Source of the DNA: an uncultured Gammaproteobacteria bacterium
GTDB taxonomy: Bacteria > Patescibacteriota > Microgenomatia > Levybacterales > UBA12049
Assembly (NCBI GenBank): GCA_964497535.1
Contig: CAZCCG010000002.1
Span: 169,297 to 233,296 of the forward strand
Length of the DNA stretch: 64,000 nucleotides
Direction: 5' to 3'
The notes beneath the pieces were generated by a model. That model was not told the origin of the DNA. It saw only the letters and a list, made by a program, of their open reading frames with translations, and did no database searches. The position numbers and the translations under genes were made by a program. How positions within the stretch are numbered: position 1 is the stretch's first letter; every line of letters starts with the position of its first letter. Positions 2,602-40,542 of this stretch are shown here, piece after piece.

Positions 2602-3291
2602 TTATCGAAGTACTTCCCTAACTGTGGCTTGTGCAAGTATTTCCATTGTATCGTAGATCTGTATCTCTTCATGTTTTGGAACAATAAGTTGTAGATCTGT
2701 ACAAGCAAGAATTATCGTCTTGAGTCCTTGAGAAGAAAAACTTTCAATTATTTGCAATAGTTCTTCTTTATCTTTTTGAGTATGTTTGCTATGAACAAGA
2801 TGATTGATAATAGCAGTTACTCTTGACTGATCTTCTTCACCTGGAGTCTGGATGGTAATACCTTTTTCCGCAAGTCTTTGGTCATACAACTGTTTACGAA
2901 TGGTTGCTGAAGTTGCTAATATTCCAACGTCTGTTATTCTTTTCTCTTCCAAAAACCGTACTGTTTCATCAATTATACTTAAAACTGGGATTTTAACAGC
3001 CTTTATTATATCTTTAATAAAAATATGGACAGAATTACAGGGTATTACAATAAAATCTGCTCCCCCATCTTCTAGGCGTTTGGCTGCATCCAAAAGATAA
3101 GGAAGATATTTTTCTTCACCCTCAGCTTTTGCAATGAAGTCTTCTTCTATTTTATAAGGAAGCGGAACATTCCAAATAAGCATAGGCGGTCTTGTTTCTT
3201 TATTTTTCTCAAAAGTTGAAAATACTACTTCCAGGTAAAAGTTAGCAGTGGTCTGCGGACCGAGTCCTCCAATAACACCAACAGTTTTCAT
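2602..3291 (-). CDS. Aspartate/glutamate racemase family protein (aspartate racemase-like)
   Basis: N-terminus MKTVGVIGGLGPQTTANFY typical of Asp/Glu racemases; ~230 aa. Confidence 0.8.
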   Translation of the reverse strand: MKTVGVIGGLGPQTTANFYLEVVFSTFEKNKETRPPMLIWNVPLPYKIEEDFIAKAEGEEKYLPYLLDAAKRLEDGGADFIVIPCNSVHIFIKDIIKAVKIPVLSIIDETVRFLEEKRITDVGILATSATIRKQLYDQRLAEKGITIQTPGEEDQSRVTAIINHLVHSKHTQKDKEELLQIIESFSSQGLKTIILACTDLQLIVPKHEEIQIYDTMEILAQATVREVLR

Positions 3292-4901: not shown

Positions 4902-4960
4902 AGTGCCTCATTTTTTTTGATCTCTTGCATACTATGCTTTCTTCATTTATACTGCTTCTA

Positions 4961-5080
4961 ACATCAAGAGTGATAGATGAAATGCTATCCGGCAACCGAA
5001 GTATTTACGGTGCCAGTTCCAAATAATTGGAGATGCGGCGAGAGCAAAATACCAAAACCTCTCGCATGAGAGGTTTTTTT
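4961..5080 (+). promoter_or_regulatory. SAM-I clan (S-box-like) riboswitch leader of metK with terminator/SD-sequestering expression platform
   Basis: Conserved S-box strings ATCAAGAG (P1 5'), GATGAAA…CCGGCAACC, GGTGCCAgTTCC and AGATG (P1 3', pairs with CATC). It is followed by hairpin CCTCTC-gcat-GAGAGG (5058–5073) plus T7 (5074–5080) abutting the metK ATG. An upstream CGAGAG could form an antiterminator. Confidence 0.7.
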
Positions 5081-6184
5081 ATGAGAAATTATTTTACTTC
5101 AGAGTCCGTATGCGCAGGACATCCTGACAAAGTATGTGACCAAATAAGTGACGCAATTGTTGATGATGTTCTCTCCCAAGATAAAAACGGTAAAGTCGCA
5201 ATAGAAACACTTGTTACCCAAAACCAAATCACAATAGCCGGAGAAATAAAGGCTCATGCCAAACCTAATTTTAAAAAAATAGCCCGACGAGAAATAAAAA
5301 GACTCGGTTATACACTCCCAAAATTAAAATTTACTTCAAACTCTCCCATTTCTTTGTTTGTCCATGCACAGTCACCCGAAATCGCAGTTGGTGTTGAAAA
5401 AAAAGGAGCCGGGGATCAGGGAATGATGTTTGGGTATGCCTGTAAAGAAACCAAAGAATACATGCCGCTTCCGATTATGCTTGCCCATGCCCTCTGCCGC
5501 CAAATTGATACCCTGAGAGAGTCAAAAAAACTGCCATATTTGCTACCGGATGGCAAAAGCCAGGTAACAGTTCGCTATCAAAAAGGCAAACCCGTTGCAG
5601 TAGATCGGGTAATACTGGCTGTTCCCCATAGTGATATGGTACAACTCCAGCAAGTAAAGCACGACATTTACAAACAGGTTGTTATACCGATACTGCAAGA
5701 ATACGGATACAATACACATGAAAAAGATGTCCTGGTAAATGGGACGGGTGTCTGGCATTTCTCCGGTCCCGCAGCTGATACAGGAGTAACAGGCAGAAAG
5801 ATTGTTGTGGATACCTATGGAGGGTATGCCAGAGTTGGGGGAGGAGCCTTTTCAGGAAAAGACCCAACCAAAGTTGATCGCTCAGGAGCATATGCTGCCA
5901 GGTATTTAGCAAAAAATATTGTTGCTCATGGATTGGCGCAGCAGGCAGAGGTACGACTGGCATATGTTATTGGTAGAGCAGAACCGCTCATGCAAGAAGT
6001 TGAAACATTTGATACCAATACCGTTTCACAAAAAGCACTCATAGAATTTATGAAAAAACTCCTCGATTGTTCGGTAGAAGGCATTCTCAAGGGTCTTGCG
6101 TTACAACAACCTCTTTACCTACCTTGCGCAGCATACGGACATTTTGGAAGGTCACAGTTCCCCTGGGAAAAAATCGTGAAATAA
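5081..6184 (+). CDS. metK: S-adenosylmethionine synthetase
   Basis: MRNYFTSESVCAGHPDKVCDQISDAIVD matches the MetK N-terminus; the GAGDQG motif is present; the ATG at 5081 is preferred over the ORF-track TTG at 5027, which would read through the riboswitch. Confidence 0.9.
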   Translation: MRNYFTSESVCAGHPDKVCDQISDAIVDDVLSQDKNGKVAIETLVTQNQITIAGEIKAHAKPNFKKIARREIKRLGYTLPKLKFTSNSPISLFVHAQSPEIAVGVEKKGAGDQGMMFGYACKETKEYMPLPIMLAHALCRQIDTLRESKKLPYLLPDGKSQVTVRYQKGKPVAVDRVILAVPHSDMVQLQQVKHDIYKQVVIPILQEYGYNTHEKDVLVNGTGVWHFSGPAADTGVTGRKIVVDTYGGYARVGGGAFSGKDPTKVDRSGAYAARYLAKNIVAHGLAQQAEVRLAYVIGRAEPLMQEVETFDTNTVSQKALIEFMKKLLDCSVEGILKGLALQQPLYLPCAAYGHFGRSQFPWEKIVK

Positions 6185-31707: not shown

Positions 31708-32919
31708 TTACTGAGAAATGTTACTCAGTGCTTCTTGTACTGCCTGGTGTTCGCTATAGGGAAGTTCTTTTCCATTATAATTCATTGACTTTTCATGCCC
31801 TTTTCCAAGGAGCAAAACAATGTCTCCTTTTTTTGCTAATTTGGTAATGATAAAGTTAATTGCTTCTGTTCTGTTTGGAATTTTAAATAATGTTTTATTC
31901 TTAATTCTTGATTCATAATTCTTAATTCCTGATTGAATCTCATTGATAATCTTCATCGGGTCCTCCCGTCTTGGATCCTCATCTGTCAAAACAATAGTGT
32001 CGGCAATCCTACCAGCAATTTCTCCCATCATAGGACGTTTCAATACATCTCTTTCTGAAGCACTTCCTAACATTACAATGATTTTTCCATCTTTTTTTAT
32101 TTGCGCTTTTGCTGCTTCTAAAATTCCTTGCACAGCATCGGGCTTATGGGCAAAATCAATAATAACTCGGAAATCTTTTCCGGTAGGGACTTCCTCAAAC
32201 CGCCCGGCAAGGTTAGTAACATTTTCAAGCGCATGTTTTATTGTTTTTTCCGGCACACCCAGAATCGTACCGACGGCGGCGGCTGCTAATGCATCCAATA
32301 AATTAAAATCTCCGGGTAGCTTTATATGGAGATTTAGTTTTTTTTGCGTAATATCACCCTCATTTAAGCCAAAGGTAATTGCCTTTTTCTGTACATCGTC
32401 AAACCCTACCGCTTCTTTCAGTTCATCCTTGATTCCCTTGAAGGGAAGGACTACTTTTTTTGCGTTATGAAGGAGAATAAATTTTGCTTTTGCGTAATTT
32501 TCAAACGTTTTATGGTAATCCAAATGTTCATGGGCAAGAGTTGTTAATACACCGATTGAAAAAGGAATAAATGCCGCCCTATTTTGATGCAATGCGTGAG
32601 ATGACACTTCCAGAACAAAATATCTATCACCCTGATCCACTGCTTGACGTAAATATTTGGGAAGTGTCTGAGGATCAGGAGTTGTTACATGAAATCCGGT
32701 ATCATAATCGATACCCCCGACAACTGCTTTGATAGACGAAAGAAGAGAAACCTTATATCCTGCAGCTTTTAGGAGTTCATATACCATATGGGTTGTAGTG
32801 GTTTTACCGCTCGTACCGGTAATTCCAATCACAGTAAGCTGTTTTCCGGGAAAACGATAGTAAAGATGAGCGAGAAAAGCAGTCGCAAGATGATATAAAT
32901 TTTTAAAGTCTTGCCACAT
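31708..32919 (-). CDS. murE: Mur ligase family protein, MurE-like (short, lacks canonical N-terminal domain); could alternatively be murD
   Basis: P-loop GITGTSGKTTTTHMV, C-terminal GKGHE motif as in MurE/MurF; contains a 21-nt in-frame tandem duplication at 31898–31939. Confidence 0.65.
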   Translation of the reverse strand: MWQDFKNLYHLATAFLAHLYYRFPGKQLTVIGITGTSGKTTTTHMVYELLKAAGYKVSLLSSIKAVVGGIDYDTGFHVTTPDPQTLPKYLRQAVDQGDRYFVLEVSSHALHQNRAAFIPFSIGVLTTLAHEHLDYHKTFENYAKAKFILLHNAKKVVLPFKGIKDELKEAVGFDDVQKKAITFGLNEGDITQKKLNLHIKLPGDFNLLDALAAAAVGTILGVPEKTIKHALENVTNLAGRFEEVPTGKDFRVIIDFAHKPDAVQGILEAAKAQIKKDGKIIVMLGSASERDVLKRPMMGEIAGRIADTIVLTDEDPRREDPMKIINEIQSGIKNYESRIKNKTLFKIPNRTEAINFIITKLAKKGDIVLLLGKGHEKSMNYNGKELPYSEHQAVQEALSNISQ

Positions 32920-33028
32920 AATGGTAATGTATCAAATTGTATTTTTTATATTATAGCTGAAATACCGACACCGTGCAGACTTGGAAAACCCTTCGTAATA
33001 CCAAAAAATCACCGTCGGAAAATAAAGC

Positions 33029-33060
33029 GGGCAAGGAACAGCCTACACTATTCCTTGCCC
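33029..33060 (-). terminator. Hairpin (10-bp stem GGGCAAGGAA/TTCCTTGCCC, 12-nt loop) downstream of island gene, weak U-run
   Basis: Read directly; lies 31 nt downstream of the minus-strand stop at 33092. Confidence 0.4.
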
Positions 33061-33091
33061 AGTGAGAAGATTGAAACCACTCAGTGGCTGA

Positions 33092-33781
33092 TCACCCCTT
33101 GACAGAATCTTTGTTGGAAGACAACAAACCTACTCTAGTCATCTCGGTATGGAACCGCATCCATCCATCATCAGTGTTAAGCCTGAGCTCTTCATACAAC
33201 TCTCTTAGCCCACCAGATATAGTTTCACGATCCAGGCTTCCTTCTCGTAGCGCTATCAACCGGTCGACACCGGTCAGAAGCTGTTGTTTGAAAATAGGGT
33301 GCGTTTCACTTCCAAGAGTTGCTTTCTTCTCAAGTATCTTGAGTAGAAAACGCTTCACCGAAGGTGAAACTCCCAATTGTCCTCCCCGTATTCGTGGCTT
33401 TCTCGGGTTAGTTCTAGTTCCCCTTTTGCGAACGTCAACGGGCTGGGGACGTGGACTGGAAATGGCCTGTTCTTGAAACGCCCGCCGGGCAGCCTGGTGT
33501 TCCTCAGGCAAAAGCTGATCGTCAAGAGCATGCAAAACCCCTGATGCCTGAATTGTTACAACTGATAATCGTACTTCTACAGAAGTGATTACTGACAAAG
33601 CCAGATATAGGGTTTCCCTTATCTCAGTATCACTAAATATCCTTTCTTTGTATCGTCTCAGCTGCATTAGTGTAGGATTTAGATTGTTGGCTACCTGAGT
33701 AAGGTGGTCAGCGTGCTCAAGCAGATCTTTTTGGAAAGCTTCAAGTTGTCTCATTGCCTCATCCACCAACGTTACAGACAT
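33092..33781 (-). CDS. Hypothetical protein (229 aa), GC-rich island
   Basis: High-GC ORF, Arg/Pro-rich central linker; no homology recognised. Confidence 0.5.
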   Translation of the reverse strand: MSVTLVDEAMRQLEAFQKDLLEHADHLTQVANNLNPTLMQLRRYKERIFSDTEIRETLYLALSVITSVEVRLSVVTIQASGVLHALDDQLLPEEHQAARRAFQEQAISSPRPQPVDVRKRGTRTNPRKPRIRGGQLGVSPSVKRFLLKILEKKATLGSETHPIFKQQLLTGVDRLIALREGSLDRETISGGLRELYEELRLNTDDGWMRFHTEMTRVGLLSSNKDSVKG

Positions 33782-34030
33782 GAGTACCTCCTTCTGTCAT
33801 ACCCTCCACGTTTTATCAGAAAGTGTGTTGGTTTTCTCCTCTCACTTGTAAATGTACCCTAAACCACAAAGCCAAAACACAAGGTTTTGGCAGCAGTTAT
33901 ATGTGAAAATCTCTCACTGGTATCAATCCGTATTGATGCCAGAATCAAGATTGTGAGAGAGGGTCTTGATAGATATCTTCCTCAAACGTCAAGCCGCATA
34001 TATGGCTTGTGTGTGGAAAGTATCTTGGGT

Positions 34031-34063
34031 GGGTTGGGGCCGAGTCTAACTCGGCCCCAACCC
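34031..34063 (-). terminator. Very stable GC hairpin (14-bp perfect stem GGGTTGGGGCCGAG/CTCGGCCCCAACCC, loop TCTAA) without U-tract
   Basis: Read directly; 16 nt downstream of the minus-strand stop at 34079; resembles U-tract-less terminators of high-GC bacteria. Confidence 0.5.
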
Positions 34064-34078
34064 GGATATGTAATGCAG

Positions 34079-34825
34079 TCAGGACGCTTTGTTCCTGCCG
34101 CTGGGCAAAACGACACCCCACTGCCTGAGCAGTTTGATGAAGTTGCCCTCGCCCATGCTGCGCACTACTTCCCGCAGAGAAGCAGCATCCCGGCTAACCG
34201 GTGCATCTGAGGTCAAGCAGACTAAGGCACTGCGTAAATCCCGGCAGATGACGCTCGCCTGCTTATCAGCGATATCGTCACCAACCACGATATCCACCAG
34301 ACCGTACTGACCTTTAACAGCCAACCGCACGATATGGGTACGCCACCCCTGACCGTACATCAGCTCCATTACCGCCTCCATGCTCTTGGGAAGCGGTTTG
34401 TTACCCCGATGCATCAGGATCTTTCGAAGGATGGAGCGAGCCAACAGCGGAATCCCCTTCGTCCGTTGCGGGATAGCAGGAGTTACTGCTGGCGCGGCCA
34501 CCGGTGGGGCAGGGGGAGCCGGCGGAGAGACAGGCGGTGTCACGGAACGACCTCCGCTCTGCCTGGCTCGGGAAACTGCATGATGAGGCGCAGACGCGGT
34601 CCCCAGATCATACTGGATCTCCGATAGTGCCCGCTGCGCTTCACTGATTGCTGCAGAAAGTTGACGTGCACTACGGCGACCCTTCTGAGGTCGCTCAACA
34701 AGTGCGAGAACCTTCTGTGCCGCCACATGGTAGCGTTGACTCTCTGCCTGAAGCTGAGCCGCGATACTACGCAGCGGCCTGAAAGTCTTCTCCTCAAACA
34801 ACGATACATCTGGCTTGGCCATCAC
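34079..34825 (-). CDS. Hypothetical protein with Pro/Ala-rich linker (PPAPPAPPVAAPAVTP) and C-terminal ~110-aa domain, GC-rich island
   Basis: High-GC ORF; no homology recognised. Confidence 0.5.
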   Translation of the reverse strand: MMAKPDVSLFEEKTFRPLRSIAAQLQAESQRYHVAAQKVLALVERPQKGRRSARQLSAAISEAQRALSEIQYDLGTASAPHHAVSRARQSGGRSVTPPVSPPAPPAPPVAAPAVTPAIPQRTKGIPLLARSILRKILMHRGNKPLPKSMEAVMELMYGQGWRTHIVRLAVKGQYGLVDIVVGDDIADKQASVICRDLRSALVCLTSDAPVSRDAASLREVVRSMGEGNFIKLLRQWGVVLPSGRNKAS

Positions 34826-34916
34826 TTCTTCCTTCCACTATTCGTAGGAGACATGGCGCGATGCCATATCTCATGGAGGTTTGGTAACACTCCCCATCCA
34901 CATCAGAGGATCCTTT

Positions 34917-36872
34917 CTAGCGCTTGCGGCCGCTCGGCCGACTGACGCGCTGCTTCGACCTCCCATACAGGAGGAAGGCATTGCGATGATGCTCAGCTGG
35001 ATCCCGGGTCGGCAAGGTGACCTCAGTCACCGCCATAGCGGCACTGAGCATAACCAGGTCCCGCTGCTGTTCGATATCTCGAGCAGCGATAGCAGCAGCC
35101 AAAGCTTCTGCTTCCTGGTTTACGATTACCCAACCCAGATCCATTTCATCGACGCTATACGGCTTGTCAGGATCATCCAAGGGGGAAATCCGAACCCGTA
35201 TAGAAGGATGTAGGTGAACCTCCTCAGGAGAAGGAGTCCTCTTGGGTAAACCTGTCTCGATGTAGAAGGTGGCTCTGTGGCCAGGATCCAGAGGAGACAG
35301 GTAGAAGGTGATACTGTTGCGGCCGCTCACCTTAAAGGGTGGCGGGACCGTAACTGAAACCACATATTTCCCATGCGGCTTCTTCCCGTAGGTGATGCGT
35401 CCTCCTTCCTGGGTTACCCTGACAGGTTCCCCTTCCAGGAAGATACGCACACCCATGACGGGTTGACCCCACTCATCAATCGCCCTGATGATCACTCGAT
35501 CTGACAGGGGATCAATTGGTGGGTCTACGATAACTCCTTTCTCTTTCCTCCGGCGAGTCTCTTTCCGAGTCTCACCGGGACCGGGGACCAGGAGGGCATC
35601 TCTAAAGATGTCCATTTCTCCCATGGCTTCGGTAATCGCATTCCCCACGTCTTCGCCGACCTTGTGGATCTGCTCGTCGTTTTGTCGGCGGCGAATCTCC
35701 TCAGAGGCCTTTTTGATCTCCGGCTCGAGCTTCTTCAGCTCATCTACCAGAAGATCAAGAATCTCAGACGGCTGGGGAGCACTCTTGCGAGAGTTCCATG
35801 GAAAGACAGTGTCAGGCAAGTCGGGCGCGCTGACAAACCCGTTCAACTCAGTCCATGGGGGACTATTGAATTGAGGCAGACTTGTCAAGTCGTTCACCCG
35901 GGACCCGGCCCGACGCAGGTCAAGCTGATGTTGCCCGCGCTTTACTTCAACCTCCAGATAGAGATCCACCTCGAAGGTAATATCAGTTCCATACAGACGA
36001 AGTGTCCGATGAGGAATGATATTCACACCCCGATACTTGGTAGCCTCTACCGGGATGATGCGTCCGGTCTTGGTCTTACGACCTTCCTCGGACACTCGAT
36101 CCACGATGACAAGCCGCAGCCGGTCAATCCGGATATCTTCGCTGAAGCGGCTGGAGAATGCGTCCCTGAGCAACCACGGCCGCAGGGCAGCTTCTACCCG
36201 ATCTTTGAACTCAACAACTTCTACTTGAGTCCCGGATCGAAGTTCTTTACCGGTTTCCGGATCCCTCAGGACTACATCCACCTCTTCAATTGTATATTTG
36301 CGGTCGTTGACTGCTAACATCTCTGCAGTTGGCGCTACGAGAAGACAGGTAGGGACCTCCCAGGGATGGAACTTCCGACCCCAGAATTCCTCTGCCATGT
36401 CAACTGTCGCCCTCGTGTACCATACAGCCCGGTTCCCTATGGAAGTGAATCCTAGGATACCCAAGCCCTTGGTTCCTCGTACCCGCTTACGCGGCTTATG
36501 CCGCTTAAATGAGTATGCGGCACTCTGCATCATCATCTTAAAGGACTTCCAGGAGAGCTCGTGCTTGATCTCATCAGCCAGACTGAGGCTGTGGGCGGAA
36601 GGGACACCTTTTTTGATGTCCTCCAGAAGCATATCGAACAGAAGGTTATCGTCAGGCATGAGCGACGGCACCAGGCCATGCCCATTGCCTACGACGATGA
36701 GCTTACCTGGTTCTGTGATCACCCAAACGCGGTCGGCACCGGCATCGATTTCATTCTCAACCAGTTCCGCCGCGGCATCAATCGGCGAATCGTACAGTGC
36801 GCCGTGATGCAACATGGAGGCGCCGGGATTGATTTCCGCCGTCCCCTCATAGCGTTGGTAGCGTTGGTTCAT
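34917..36872 (-). CDS. GHKL-superfamily ATPase (MutL/MORC-like HATPase_c at extreme N-terminus) with C-terminal carboxypeptidase-regulatory-like beta-sandwich region
   Basis: N-box AAAELVENEIDAGA (ExxxNxxDAGA, as in MutL VKELVENSLDAGA), G1 VVGNGHGL, G2-like GTKGLGILGFTS; C-terminal IFLEGEPVRVTQEGGRITYGKKPHGKYVVSV pattern. Confidence 0.65.
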   Translation of the reverse strand: MNQRYQRYEGTAEINPGASMLHHGALYDSPIDAAAELVENEIDAGADRVWVITEPGKLIVVGNGHGLVPSLMPDDNLLFDMLLEDIKKGVPSAHSLSLADEIKHELSWKSFKMMMQSAAYSFKRHKPRKRVRGTKGLGILGFTSIGNRAVWYTRATVDMAEEFWGRKFHPWEVPTCLLVAPTAEMLAVNDRKYTIEEVDVVLRDPETGKELRSGTQVEVVEFKDRVEAALRPWLLRDAFSSRFSEDIRIDRLRLVIVDRVSEEGRKTKTGRIIPVEATKYRGVNIIPHRTLRLYGTDITFEVDLYLEVEVKRGQHQLDLRRAGSRVNDLTSLPQFNSPPWTELNGFVSAPDLPDTVFPWNSRKSAPQPSEILDLLVDELKKLEPEIKKASEEIRRRQNDEQIHKVGEDVGNAITEAMGEMDIFRDALLVPGPGETRKETRRRKEKGVIVDPPIDPLSDRVIIRAIDEWGQPVMGVRIFLEGEPVRVTQEGGRITYGKKPHGKYVVSVTVPPPFKVSGRNSITFYLSPLDPGHRATFYIETGLPKRTPSPEEVHLHPSIRVRISPLDDPDKPYSVDEMDLGWVIVNQEAEALAAAIAARDIEQQRDLVMLSAAMAVTEVTLPTRDPAEHHRNAFLLYGRSKQRVSRPSGRKR

Positions 36873-38638
36873 TAAAACCCTACCTCCTTCATGACTCTGA
36901 TGCGGTCTTCTCGAACCACTCCCTGTTTTACCAGGATTTCCAGAAGCTGGATAACGCCGTTCATAGCGCTTCCATGCTCCCTTCGGAGTTGATCTCGTGT
37001 AGCAGGATCATCAGCCTCCATATACTCTCGCAAGAGTGCTTCAAGACTGCTTAACGTTACCGCAACATCGCTTCCCTCTGTATGAGCCTTCCTCCTTCTG
37101 AGGCGCTCCTCAAATGCTCTTCCTTCGAGCATCTGTTGCAGACTTGTTACCGCGTTGTGTATCTGACCCAAACGCTCTGCCTGCTCGTGCAGTAACTGCT
37201 CGCGCATCTGTGCAAGATCTTGTTGGATTTGGGCTCGAATGGCTTCGTTATCTGCTGCTCGTTTTCCTCCCATAGCTAAAACTACCACCTCTGTTAAGGT
37301 TCTTGATATCTCAGCACCAATTTGCTGAGATAGTGCATGGACGAGGTTATCGATATAACCTCCTACCAAACCCCCTACAGAAGAGGATAACGATGGTACA
37401 GATGGTTCTAGTACAACCGCCTCTTCCTCCGATGGTGGCGGGAGTCGGTCTTCAGACGGTTCTTCCTCTTCGCCACTCTCGTCTCCAAGAGACGCGGGTG
37501 CAGAATCTACGTCCTCCCCATCCTCCGGGTTCTCCGACTTTTTCTCTAGCCACTCCTGATATTCTTGCTCCGACCAGGCTCGCTTCACTTCGCGAAAACC
37601 TTTTCCGTGTGCCACCCAGATAGGGGGCAACGTACAGGGATCCGCAAGTGGTAACCGGCTCAGCCGGTGGATGTTGGCGTAGTGCTCTGTGTTGAGTACA
37701 TCTTCGCCGTGGATGATCTTGTGCCATGTCCCCAACGGTATACCAGCTTCGTGTGCAAAAACCGTCAGTGACGTACCACGATTGGCAGGAATCCACTCCC
37801 GCAAATCGTGCATCAGGTCCTGGGCAAATGTCGGTGGAGGCGGTTGCTCTTGTAAAGCCAGCCACTCCTCCAATCGTTGTTCTGTCCACGCCCGATGAAT
37901 CAGGATGTGTTTCCTGTTATCCCGAGGACCAACTTGTGAAGGTCGGCCAGGGATAATCGTCGGCCGGGATTGTGGCAACCTCGTGAGGCGGTATATACGA
38001 GCATAGTACTCGTAGTCCTCCGCTTCAACGATAGACTCGCCGTAAACAACCCGCTTGAGCACATTCCAGGGTACTTCCAGCTCAGCAGACAACCTCTTGT
38101 TATCGTATCCGTGCTCACCCATCCAGGCGAGAATCGCCGTGGAAAGAGCTGCACGGAACTGCTGCGGAGTCAGCTCTTCCGATGAAGAACCACTCCTTGC
38201 AGCTGCAACTGCGGACGCTTGGTCCATGTCCACCTCCTCTTCAGTTCCTCCCTGTTGTGTGCTTCCTAAAACAGGACCTGCAGACGCAGCTTCCTGCTTA
38301 CGATTCTTCTCTAGCCACTCCTGATATTCTTGCTCCGACCAGGCACGGACTTTCCCCGACAGTATTCCACCTCTTCGCACATGTGAATATGCAATCGGTA
38401 GCCTACTCGGGTCAGCCTCTTGTATACCAAAGTCGTGATGAAGCCTGGCATAGACATCTGTTGCATCCAGGATTGCCCCTGCGGTAAGCAGCAGCTTTCC
38501 TTCGGCTTCAGATACCCCAAGCTCCTCGAAGAAATCTGGCTCAGATCGATGCTCTTTCTCAAGCATCTCCAGTACAGCAAAGGCAACCTTTTCTGCCCAC
38601 TGCTGTTCCTCGGTGGTAAACGCCAAGTTGACGTTCAA
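36872..38638 (-). CDS. Hypothetical protein with three tandem ~120-aa repeats (each ending R-A-W-[ST]-E-Q-x-x-x-E-W-L) and C-terminal coiled coil; translationally coupled to the GHKL ATPase gene
   Basis: Protein-level repeats RAWSEQEYQEWLEK (x2) and RAWTEQRLEEWLALQ; 37-nt perfect DNA repeat at 37543–37579 and 38308–38344 (765 nt apart, in frame); its stop overlaps the downstream start at 36872. Confidence 0.55.
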   Translation of the reverse strand: MNVNLAFTTEEQQWAEKVAFAVLEMLEKEHRSEPDFFEELGVSEAEGKLLLTAGAILDATDVYARLHHDFGIQEADPSRLPIAYSHVRRGGILSGKVRAWSEQEYQEWLEKNRKQEAASAGPVLGSTQQGGTEEEVDMDQASAVAAARSGSSSEELTPQQFRAALSTAILAWMGEHGYDNKRLSAELEVPWNVLKRVVYGESIVEAEDYEYYARIYRLTRLPQSRPTIIPGRPSQVGPRDNRKHILIHRAWTEQRLEEWLALQEQPPPPTFAQDLMHDLREWIPANRGTSLTVFAHEAGIPLGTWHKIIHGEDVLNTEHYANIHRLSRLPLADPCTLPPIWVAHGKGFREVKRAWSEQEYQEWLEKKSENPEDGEDVDSAPASLGDESGEEEEPSEDRLPPPSEEEAVVLEPSVPSLSSSVGGLVGGYIDNLVHALSQQIGAEISRTLTEVVVLAMGGKRAADNEAIRAQIQQDLAQMREQLLHEQAERLGQIHNAVTSLQQMLEGRAFEERLRRRKAHTEGSDVAVTLSSLEALLREYMEADDPATRDQLRREHGSAMNGVIQLLEILVKQGVVREDRIRVMKEVGF

Positions 38639-38862
38639 CGCAACCTCCTTCTTTTCTGTTTCCAGTTATCGTATAAGGTATTACATATACCCTCTCTCAC
38701 TTTTCAATGTGCTTTTTTATTCCATGGTAAAACCATTTGGGCACTCTATGCCCGCAGGTCAAAACATGGATAAGAATTATACTATAAATTGCATCTTGTA
38801 GTAAAGTCAGCAAGAGGCTAATCGATTCCCGGGAATATTCAAGAAGAGATCTTATAATACAA

Positions 38863-40542
38863 CTATTCGCTCGGAGGTATCTGGTAATAGTCAAAAAGCT
38901 TGCGGGAGATGTCGAAAAATAACGGCGCTGCAGTCTCAGCACCATAAATAGAGGTTGTCGGCCTATCAATAACAACCAGCATGGCAAATTTTGGATTATC
39001 GGCAGGAGCATAGCCGATAAATGAGGCAATTGTTTTATTTGGATCATAATGTCCTGCGATTGGAATCTGGGCAGTCCCTGTCTTTCCAGCAATTCGATAT
39101 CCTTTCACCCTGGCAAATTGGGCTTCCCCTTTATTGACTGCATTTACCAGTATTTCAGTCATGATCTTTGCTGTTTTGGAAGATATGGGGGTACTGAGTG
39201 TTTTTGGAGGAATATCAATTGTTTCCCCATCAGGAGTTTTAATCTGAGAAACAATATGCGGCTCCATCCGGATCCCATCATTGGCAAGCGCGGAAAAAGC
39301 ACTCAGTAGTTCTATCGGCGTTAAATCAATTCCCTGCCCAAAACTCGCTGTTGCCACATCTATTGGATACCACTGATCTTTTTCTTTGAGTCCCGGCGCG
39401 ATTTCTCCCTGGATATCAACCCCGGTAAGACCACCGACGCCAAACTTTTTAAAATACTCAAGCATTTGATCGAGTCCCAATTTCCTGGATACGAAAACCA
39501 TTCCTGTATTATCCGAATGACGTATTACGTCAATCATAGTCATTCCTTGCTGATATTGATTATTCCAGGTATGAATATCATATCCTCCAACGGATACAGG
39601 ACCCGCACAAATATCACATGTTGTATCTGGTTTTACTACACCTGCATCTATGGCTGCAGCCATAATAATTGATTTGAAAGTGGATCCGGGCTCATATAAA
39701 TTGCTGACGATTGGATTCTTATAAAGATCTGATTCATATTCATAAAACCTGCGTTGATCAAAAGAAGGAAAACTCGACATTGCCAAAATAGCACCCGTAT
39801 GAGGATCCATAATCACCACAAGCCCGCTGGAGGCCCCATATTTCTCAACGCTATCCTTTAATTGATTGTCAGAAATATATTGCACAGAACGATCAATACT
39901 TAAAGTCAAGGTTCTCCCATCAATCTGTCTCGTATTATCATTTATATACGCCAGAATCGGCCTGCCAAATGCATCATGAATTTCTCTTCCAATCCCACTC
40001 TTACCACTCAATTGTCTATCATAATATCCTTCAAGACCGAAATAACCTTTATCATTGCCTTCATCATCTTTACCGACAAAACCGGTCAGTTGGGCAGCCA
40101 GAGACGCTTCAGGATAAAAACGGACAGATAATTCTTCAAACCCAATTCCCGTTAGCTTTAATTTTTCAATTTCTTCTTTTTCTTTATTGTCCACAGGAGA
40201 TGTAATGGGAACCCAAAATTTATCCATGGCTAACTTAGCACTTACCGATGCCGGATCTTGCTGGAGGACCTGAGAAAGGAGAAGTGTTGTCTGATCTTTA
40301 TTTTTTATTTCTTTGGGGTTTGCAAAAACCAGGTATGCAGTTTTATTCGCAACAATTGAATAGCCATCTGCAGTCTGAATCTCTCCACGATTCGGAATGA
40401 GTTTTATATACCGTCCATACTGAGATTGCGCCAATTCAGACAATTCTTCCGCTTTCACTACTTGCCAATAAAATAACTTACTAATTACAAGGAAAAAAAG
40501 AAAAACCAAACATATCAATGTCAAACGATAACGCCATATCAT
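38863..40542 (-). CDS. ftsI: Peptidoglycan D,D-transpeptidase FtsI (class B PBP)
   Basis: N-terminal TM, SxxK (GSTFKSI), SxN (HSDN), KTGT motifs; 559 aa. Confidence 0.9.
   Translation of the reverse strand: MIWRYRLTLICLVFLFFLVISKLFYWQVVKAEELSELAQSQYGRYIKLIPNRGEIQTADGYSIVANKTAYLVFANPKEIKNKDQTTLLLSQVLQQDPASVSAKLAMDKFWVPITSPVDNKEKEEIEKLKLTGIGFEELSVRFYPEASLAAQLTGFVGKDDEGNDKGYFGLEGYYDRQLSGKSGIGREIHDAFGRPILAYINDNTRQIDGRTLTLSIDRSVQYISDNQLKDSVEKYGASSGLVVIMDPHTGAILAMSSFPSFDQRRFYEYESDLYKNPIVSNLYEPGSTFKSIIMAAAIDAGVVKPDTTCDICAGPVSVGGYDIHTWNNQYQQGMTMIDVIRHSDNTGMVFVSRKLGLDQMLEYFKKFGVGGLTGVDIQGEIAPGLKEKDQWYPIDVATASFGQGIDLTPIELLSAFSALANDGIRMEPHIVSQIKTPDGETIDIPPKTLSTPISSKTAKIMTEILVNAVNKGEAQFARVKGYRIAGKTGTAQIPIAGHYDPNKTIASFIGYAPADNPKFAMLVVIDRPTTSIYGAETAAPLFFDISRKLFDYYQIPPSE

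Follow-up and report, generated by a model that had tools for sequence, protein, structure and literature searches.

The metK gene at positions 5081–6184 (+) of the window, by which we mean the whole 64,000-nt stretch of DNA that was analysed, encodes an S-adenosylmethionine (SAM) synthetase of 367 amino acids with three S-AdoMet synthetase Pfam domains. The question raised by this locus is which kind of RNA element precedes the gene, and how such an element would act on it. Our answer is that the leader is very probably a SAM-I/IV riboswitch giving feedback repression of metK, the regulated gene, in a Microgenomates-like (Patescibacteria/CPR) host. Class membership is given by a covariance model, the helices by folding and covariation, and the Shine-Dalgarno (SD) sequence, U run and AUG by their positions. 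The class, the target gene and the type of expression platform are all known already, and standard Rfam annotation would flag the element. It is an ordinary member of the SAM-I/IV class and leaves the knowledge of SAM riboswitches unchanged.

Class of the leader and anatomy of its aptamer

When the window was scanned against Rfam 15 with cmscan, the SAM-I/IV family (RF01725) matched at 4956–5061 on the plus strand with 44.2 bits (gathering score 41.1). The E-value was 6.7e-4 for the whole 64-kb window and 4227 families, and 3.1e-6 in a local search. The margin over the gathering threshold is 3 bits only, but the bit score and both E-values together make the match more than a chance one. It was the sole match above the gathering threshold in the 64 kb; no tRNA, rRNA or other Rfam family was found besides the riboswitch in positions 1–64000, and a permissive local scan around the leader gave no other credible family. 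RF01725 also scored higher at this leader than the SAM-I family, RF00162. The element lies on the metK strand and the match ends 19 nt upstream of the ATG at 5081. A sequence-only reading of this DNA had proposed a SAM-I-clan element of the SAM-I/IV type ahead of metK and had suggested two checks, a search for an Rfam match above threshold and a look at whether P1 and the terminator can form. The proposal is borne out on both counts: the match is present, and in the minimum-free-energy (MFE) fold of the whole leader (4960–5090; -34.1 kcal/mol, z -2.97) all helices and the terminator were recovered, P1 among them.

The core strings quoted in that reading are found at ATCAAGAG (4963–4970), CCGGCAACC (4989–4997) and GGTGCCAGTTCC (5009–5020), and AGATG (5031–5035) closes P1 on CATC (4962–4965), as claimed. 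The element is also as compact as had been described, spanning 74 nt from P1 to P1. P1 pairs CAUC (4962–4965, +) with GAUG (5032–5035, +) according to the Rfam alignment, the MFE fold and covariation. In the window it is only 4 bp long, and the outer pair A4961/C5036, which is G-C, A-U or G-U in relatives, is mismatched. Compensatory changes in P1 among the relatives include C-G to U-A and G-C to A-U. The strand J1/2, AAGAG (4966–4970, +), is a conserved part of the SAM pocket, as judged by its (near-)invariant columns and the Rfam consensus.

P2 is a plain hairpin (GAUAG 4972–4976 / CUAUC 4985–4989, +) with an 8-nt loop at 4977–4984, and both the Rfam alignment and the MFE fold add the pair G4970–C4990 to it. 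Neither an internal loop nor a K-turn was seen in P2 of the window in the alignment or the fold. The string GATGAAA, which had been listed among the conserved S-box core strings, is here merely the P2 loop, and a K-turn reading of it was rejected. As to the pseudoknot PK-1, complementarity between the P2 loop and J3/4 amounts to at most 3 nt (GAA/UUC) and overlaps P4; with so little complementarity PK-1 was rejected. P3 carries the asymmetric bulge (GGC-AA-CCG 4991–4998 / CGG-U-GCC 5008–5014, +; Rfam alignment, MFE and RNAalifold) and is closed by the loop AAGUAUUUA (4999–5007, +). Its GGCAACC and GGUGC segments are invariant in 12 sequences including env87, and the same holds for the other SAM-pocket residues, namely AGAG of J1/2 and the A-U/U-A pairs of P1. 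A SAM-I-type binding core, made up of P1, J1/2 (A/C)(A/C)GAG and the asymmetric bulge of P3, is thus complete within 4962–5035, and we infer that the element binds SAM.

The claim that the element shows no P4 hairpin did not survive. A mini-hairpin of 5 bp, UCCAA (5018–5022), loop AUAA, UUGGA (5027–5031), on the plus strand, is found in the MFE folds. It covaries among relatives, and since it sits between P3 and the 3' strand of P1 it must be regarded as P4. Taken alone this hairpin is weak (-3.1 kcal/mol, with 22 of 200 shuffles folding equally well) and its support is comparative: of 13 junction segments tested, 12 form a hairpin of 2–7 bp here. Downstream of P1 lies a vestigial P5 (5038–5045, +), which corresponds to P4 of the Rfam model and consists of G5038–C5045, C5039–G5044 and a GAGA tetraloop. 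The Rfam alignment retains two of the four model pairs of this 3' hairpin, which is present in the MFE fold with marginal stability. P5 thus has 2 bp in the window as against 3–7 or more in the relatives. P5, the pseudoknot PK-2 and the antiterminator, the latter two described below, go beyond the earlier description of the leader.

Relatives, covariation and the PK-2 pseudoknot

For comparison, metK leaders were fetched from 12 distinct relatives (L001, L083, L085, L086 and L176–L183). The S-box core is present in all 12. Seven of these leaders scored above the RF01725 gathering score and one just below it; L001, L086, L179 and L181 carry long P2, P3 or P5 insertions; they missed the threshold and were recognised by a core regular expression plus alignment. 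On this sequence evidence a SAM-I/IV aptamer is found in the metK leaders of all 12 fetched Microgenomates relatives. Scans of genome and metagenome contigs with universally conserved MetK peptides gave mostly distant homologues (57% identity or less), the useful ones being L001, L036 and L096. The latter two, more distant relatives, have classical SAM-I leaders; that of L036 (2775–2875; from 'bacterium YP4.bin81', MetK 59% identical) has a P2 with a K-turn, a PK-1 (UUGG/CCAA) and a very short P4. This shows that the SAM-I and SAM-I/IV types of the clan both serve metK in neighbouring lineages.

RNAalifold applied to an unfitted MAFFT alignment of 11 leaders recovered P1–P3, with compensatory changes in 8 of 17 pairs. 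MAFFT was unable to align the variable arms of P4, P5 and PK-2, and for these a structural alignment of the 11 leaders and env87 (A2) was made by hand. In A2, 24 of 39 pairs have changed on both sides (P4 5/7, P5 4/7, PK-2 6/8; for P2, 5/6 in the structure-guided alignment). Paired cells make up 99.7%, compared with 37–48% in every slid control, a percentage that is inflated by construction because the alignment was fitted by hand. Compensatory changes are accordingly seen in P1–P5 and in PK-2 across the related leaders.

PK-2 joins the P3 loop to the tail of the aptamer. In the window its 5' strand GUAUUU (5001–5006, +) pairs with AAAUAC (5047–5052, +), just 3' of the mini-P5 and corresponding to the conserved CAAAAA tail of the Rfam consensus. 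All six pairs are Watson-Crick and the duplex is worth -3.8 kcal/mol. PK-2 was also examined independently of any alignment, by calculating duplex energies for every P3 loop against every 12-nt tail following P5. The mean was -2.79 kcal/mol for self combinations and 0.01 kcal/mol for non-self ones, and none of 20000 tail permutations gave a mean as low. The loop and tail of the window are each other's best partners among the 12 tails and 12 loops. An unrestricted search for P3-loop complements had returned chance matches in coding regions, such as GAAGUA/UACUUC, and was replaced by this 12-nt test.

Expression platform and its proposed coupling to the aptamer

The segment between the aptamer and metK folds into a hairpin of 10 bp resembling an intrinsic terminator: AAAACCUCUC (5054–5063), the loop GCAU and GAGAGGUUUU (5068–5077), with U7 at 5074–5080, all on the plus strand (-12.7 kcal/mol, z -5.9). 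The string CCTCTC-gcat-GAGAGG-T7 noted earlier does occupy 5058–5080 and directly abuts the ATG at 5081. The U run itself supplies the U of four A-U pairs in the ten-pair stem, and UUU alone stays unpaired. A terminator scan called the 5054–5077 hairpin on the minus strand only, the plus-strand call presumably being missed because the stem extends into the U run. A terminator function of this palindromic hairpin on the minus strand was rejected, as no minus-strand gene ends there. The SD sequence GAGAGG (5068–5073, +) lies 7 nt from the AUG and wholly inside the 3' arm of the hairpin. That it is the only plausible ribosome-binding site holds true, no other purine-rich run resembling an SD occurring within 20 nt of the AUG. 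In the rest of the window, genes that have an SD show canonical AGGAGG-type sites.

A second hairpin can form in the same region. GCGAGAG (5038–5044) is complementary to CUCUCGC (5059–5065, both +), giving a putative antiterminator or anti-sequestor of 7 bp with a 14-nt loop (-10.0 kcal/mol, z -4.3, a stability reached by 0 of 200 shuffles), whose structure comes from folding and whose function would follow from its position. It is the MFE structure of a nascent transcript ending at 5067, before the 3' arm of the terminator. Its 5' strand is the mini-P5, in that seven nucleotides of the GAGA hairpin region double as antiterminator strand, and its loop holds the 3' strand of PK-2. With strands shared in this way, the SAM-stabilised PK-2/P5 subdomain and the antiterminator are alternatives. 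An equivalent antiterminator occurs in L083, L176, L177 and L180, where it draws on the GAGAG of P4 and breaks up P1 as well as P4. The bases of the terminator loop covary with the upstream antiterminator strand (GC/GC in the window, AGA/UCU in L083). Unlike that of the relatives, the antiterminator of the window overlaps neither P1 nor P4, and its coupling to SAM binding therefore rests wholly on PK-2/P5.

These structures suggest the following course of events. Transcription would begin about 1–2 nt before P1, from a conserved promoter, and the aptamer (4962–5052) would fold into P1–P2–P3–P4 and the 3' subdomain composed of the 2-bp P5 and of PK-2 between the P3 loop and the tail. With SAM bound, the core and PK-2/P5 would be stabilised and 5038–5052 held in the aptamer, leaving CCUCUC (5058–5063) free to pair with GAGAGG (5068–5073). 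The hairpin and U7 would then terminate transcription just before the AUG, and any read-through transcript would have its SD buried, resulting in a dual OFF switch. At low SAM, GCGAGAG (5038–5044) would pair with CUCUCGC (5059–5065) as soon as the latter is transcribed and block the terminator; GAGAGG would be single-stranded, and metK would be both transcribed and translated. The role proposed here for PK-2/P5 fits a report attributed to Trausch et al. in 2014, in which SAM is said to stabilise a pseudoknot that forms part of the regulatory switch.

The scheme includes a competition between PK-2/P5 and the antiterminator, which we infer to be kinetic. By nearest-neighbour energies the antiterminator (-10 kcal/mol) is preferred to P5 (about -2) plus PK-2 (-3.8), so that the OFF state needs ligand plus tertiary stabilisation, or kinetic trapping. 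How a 2-bp P5 and a 6-bp, A/U-rich PK-2 withstand an antiterminator of -10 kcal/mol is the main mechanistic question posed by the leader.

The relatives differ in how the aptamer is joined to metK. A hairpin followed by U6–7 and directly by the AUG is shared by the window, L085 (CCCCGC/GCGGGG), L180 (CCUCUCG/CGAGAGG) and L183, and the recurrence of this layout with different stems argues that the dual arrangement has been selected. In L083, L176, L177 and L001 the terminator stands 6–115 nt before the start. L178, L179, L181, L182 and L086 have no terminator, their SD lying in the 3' arm of P5 and/or PK-2 touching the AUG. The leaders thus show at least three platforms: one with the terminator far from the start, one in which terminator and SD overlap, and one with P5/PK-2 covering SD and AUG. 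In two of the terminator-less leaders, L178 (235–255) and L182 (485–505), the predicted 3' strand of PK-2 overlaps the start codon (AAAAUA-UG and UAUG, respectively), and a SAM-stabilised PK-2 would directly occlude the AUG there. A further arrangement was observed in L177 (about 435–610), where terminator, U7 and AUG are followed by a 13-codon ORF (MGKKLHVILEGTK*), some 110 nt and then the real metK start. This order gives the impression that an ancestral dual platform has been parted from metK by an insertion.

A switch acting on translation only, in which the 5054–5077 hairpin sequesters the SD upon SAM binding and U7 is a mere A/U-rich spacer, has to be weighed against the dual mechanism. 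It would explain why the SD is entirely within the 3' arm of the hairpin and why four of the ten stem pairs consume the U run down to UUU, and it would agree with the five terminator-less relatives, in which SD or AUG is set against P5/PK-2, as well as with the SD-like string 'aggag' in the tail of the Rfam SAM-I/IV consensus. However, L001, L176 and L177 keep the same hairpin and U7 at 20–115 nt upstream of the start, too far for sequestering an SD, which argues for a real terminator rather than only an SD sequestor, and the geometry of a canonical terminator is seen in the G+C-rich core with its seven U behind it. We therefore regard a translation-only switch as unlikely and retain the dual mechanism.

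A more far-reaching proposal is that the aptamer is read out entirely via the 3' PK-2/P5 subdomain and not via P1, and that the same aptamer sits on at least three platforms among the Microgenomates relatives. We advance this tentatively and would lean somewhat against it ourselves. If true, the metK leaders of Microgenomates would form a natural series for the evolution of expression platforms, and Patescibacteria, for which genetic tools are wanted, would gain a native control element that responds to a ligand.

Comparison with known SAM riboswitches

The closest known system is the SAM-I/IV class itself (RF01725), for which Weinberg et al. 2010 is reportedly the work to cite. With this class, whose representative env87 has a crystal structure (PDB 4L81, credited to Trausch et al. 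2014), the window shares J1/2 AAGAG, GGCAACC/GGUGC, an unsplit P2 with neither K-turn nor PK-1, a small P4 in the junction, PK-2 and the association with a gene of SAM metabolism. The GAGA-looped 3' hairpin, which in the class packs on PK-2, is represented in the window by the marginal 2-bp P5. An unsplit P2, absence of PK-1, presence of P4 and a PK-2 constitute the SAM-I/IV architecture (PMC6890682), and a plain P2 without PK-1 is a defining feature also according to PMC2864571. The published env87 sequence has CACCG-GAGA-CGGUG in the junction and GCCC-GAGA-GGGC as its 3' hairpin, and its tail GUCCGU is complementary to the P3 loop ACGGAC (PMC5393176). The window differs from env87 in that P5 has 2 bp instead of 4 and the loop of P4 is AUAA, not GNRA. 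In its platform the terminator and the SD overlap, while for the class the tail of the Rfam consensus points mostly to direct control of the SD, and its host is a Microgenomates-like CPR bacterium, whereas the class was first described from marine metagenomes. SAM-IV (RF00634) likewise combines PK-2 with a hairpin 3' of P1, but has a P2 split into P2a/P2b, a PK-1 and no P4 (PMC6890682), in contrast to the plain P2, missing PK-1 and P4 of the window.

The likeness to the classical SAM-I or S-box riboswitch (RF00162) is considerable and comprises the ligand core, a four-way junction with P4, metK as target and a terminator/antiterminator logic. One could accordingly view the leader as a SAM-I aptamer that has lost P4 and acts purely by competition between P1 and an antiterminator, a view helped by the core strings common to SAM-I, by the true SAM-I leaders of the more distant L036 and L096 and by the placing of SAM-I, SAM-IV and SAM-I/IV as types within a single general class (McCown et al. 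2017, PMC5473149). The leader nevertheless has a P4, albeit a minimal one, lacks the K-turn or internal loop of P2 as well as PK-1, possesses an extra and covarying PK-2/P5 subdomain, and scores better with RF01725 than with RF00162. In SAM-I the antiterminator competes with P1; here the sole stable antiterminator competes with P5/PK-2 and leaves P1 uninvolved. A P4-less SAM-I aptamer is for these reasons very improbable. Equally improbable is a decaying, non-functional relic whose hairpin serves as a constitutive attenuator or RNA-stability element: P5 is indeed down to 2 bp, P1 has 4 bp next to an A/C mismatch and the Rfam threshold is barely exceeded, but the pocket residues are all intact, PK-2 has six unbroken pairs and is specific to its own tail, a matched antiterminator exists, the layout is apparently kept in the nearest relative (MetK 66% identical), and a constitutive terminator ahead of an essential gene would be harmful.

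The sequence-only reading had pointed to combined transcriptional and translational control. This is no unusual arrangement, having already been defined by Barrick and Breaker (2007, Genome Biol 8:R239, PMC2258182) as a 'dual expression platform', a terminator with the ribosome-binding site in its 3' side and no more than 10 nt separating its hairpin from the start codon, which could attenuate transcription as well as translation. In the window 5077 is the last position of the stem, the AUG follows at 5081 and the ribosome-binding site is in the 3' arm; nothing essential differs, and the leader is another instance, on a SAM-I/IV aptamer. The same reading held that SAM riboswitches are not often noted in reduced genomes of this type. 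This agrees with the searched literature, in which no account of a natural riboswitch from Patescibacteria or Microgenomates turned up. Among the fetched Microgenomates metK loci, however, the element is the rule (12 of 12, on several different expression platforms). That a small-genome CPR bacterium retains metabolite-sensing RNA control of SAM synthesis is modestly interesting, chiefly since that literature hardly touches on natural riboswitches in Patescibacteria. Riboswitches have been named as promising tools for Patescibacteria engineering (PMC11665869), a purpose that a native SAM-responsive element could serve.

Promoter, host and gene calls

A sigma-70-type promoter is predicted from the sequence upstream of the aptamer, with -35 TTGCAT at 4925–4930, a 17-nt spacer and -10 TATACT at 4948–4953 (+). 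A corresponding pair, TTGCAa-17/18-TtaaAT, precedes P1 by 6–9 nt in 12 of 13 leaders; automatic scoring of -35 and -10 boxes missed -10 boxes of the TTAAAT type, which became visible only in a listing anchored on P1. These positions would place the transcription start at about 4960–4961, 1–2 nt before P1.

Two Logan assemblies, SRR9179563 and SRR9179560, are the only places where the exact MetK of the window was found. Among named sequences, the nearest homologues of MetK (65–74% identity) and of PurA, which is encoded near metK, belong to Candidatus Roizmanbacteria, Levybacteria, Daviesbacteria and 'Patescibacteria group', and one PurA homologue is 81% identical to that of the window. It is from these two proteins that the host is placed as a Microgenomates-like CPR bacterium. 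Public gene calls for Microgenomates metK often begin inside the leader and thereby carry 8–48 spurious N-terminal residues, as in P0005, P0010, P0022, P0027, P0057, P0086, P0091 and P0114 (loci L085, L177 and L180). Spurious N-termini such as '...SRMRGFFM' and '...YSRGFFM' are the translated terminator hairpin and U run. The N-terminus of P0086 reads '...SSRMRGFLM', compared with '...SRMRGFFM' for the translated leader of the window, and is consistent with an identical CCUCUCGCAUGAGAGG-U6-AUG. The closest relative found is the probable source of P0086, and as judged by this N-terminus the hairpin-U-AUG layout appears to be kept in that nearest relative (MetK 66% identity).

Some features of the remaining window were observed in passing. 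The long ORFs from 1.4 kb onward are nearly all on the minus strand, metK being among the few plus-strand genes. Many of the long ORFs have a TATAAT-like box some 6–10 nt before the ATG and no Shine-Dalgarno sequence, for example 'ctgctataatcgttttATG' and 'ccatggtataatacctcgttttATG'; minus-strand ORF starts with such a box are located at 3291, 4460, 7440, 9027, 10519, 14385, 19473, 28469 and 44613. GGAG, GAGG or AGGA occurs at -22 to -4 in 14 of 46 ORFs of at least 150 amino acids (background 12.7%), and those sites are strong canonical SDs. This start-site pattern suggests that leaderless or very short-leader mRNAs may be widespread in the window. Finally, the G+C content of positions 32001–40000 is 49%, against 33–42% elsewhere in the window, and this segment may be a block gained by horizontal transfer, or else a gene cluster of distinct composition.
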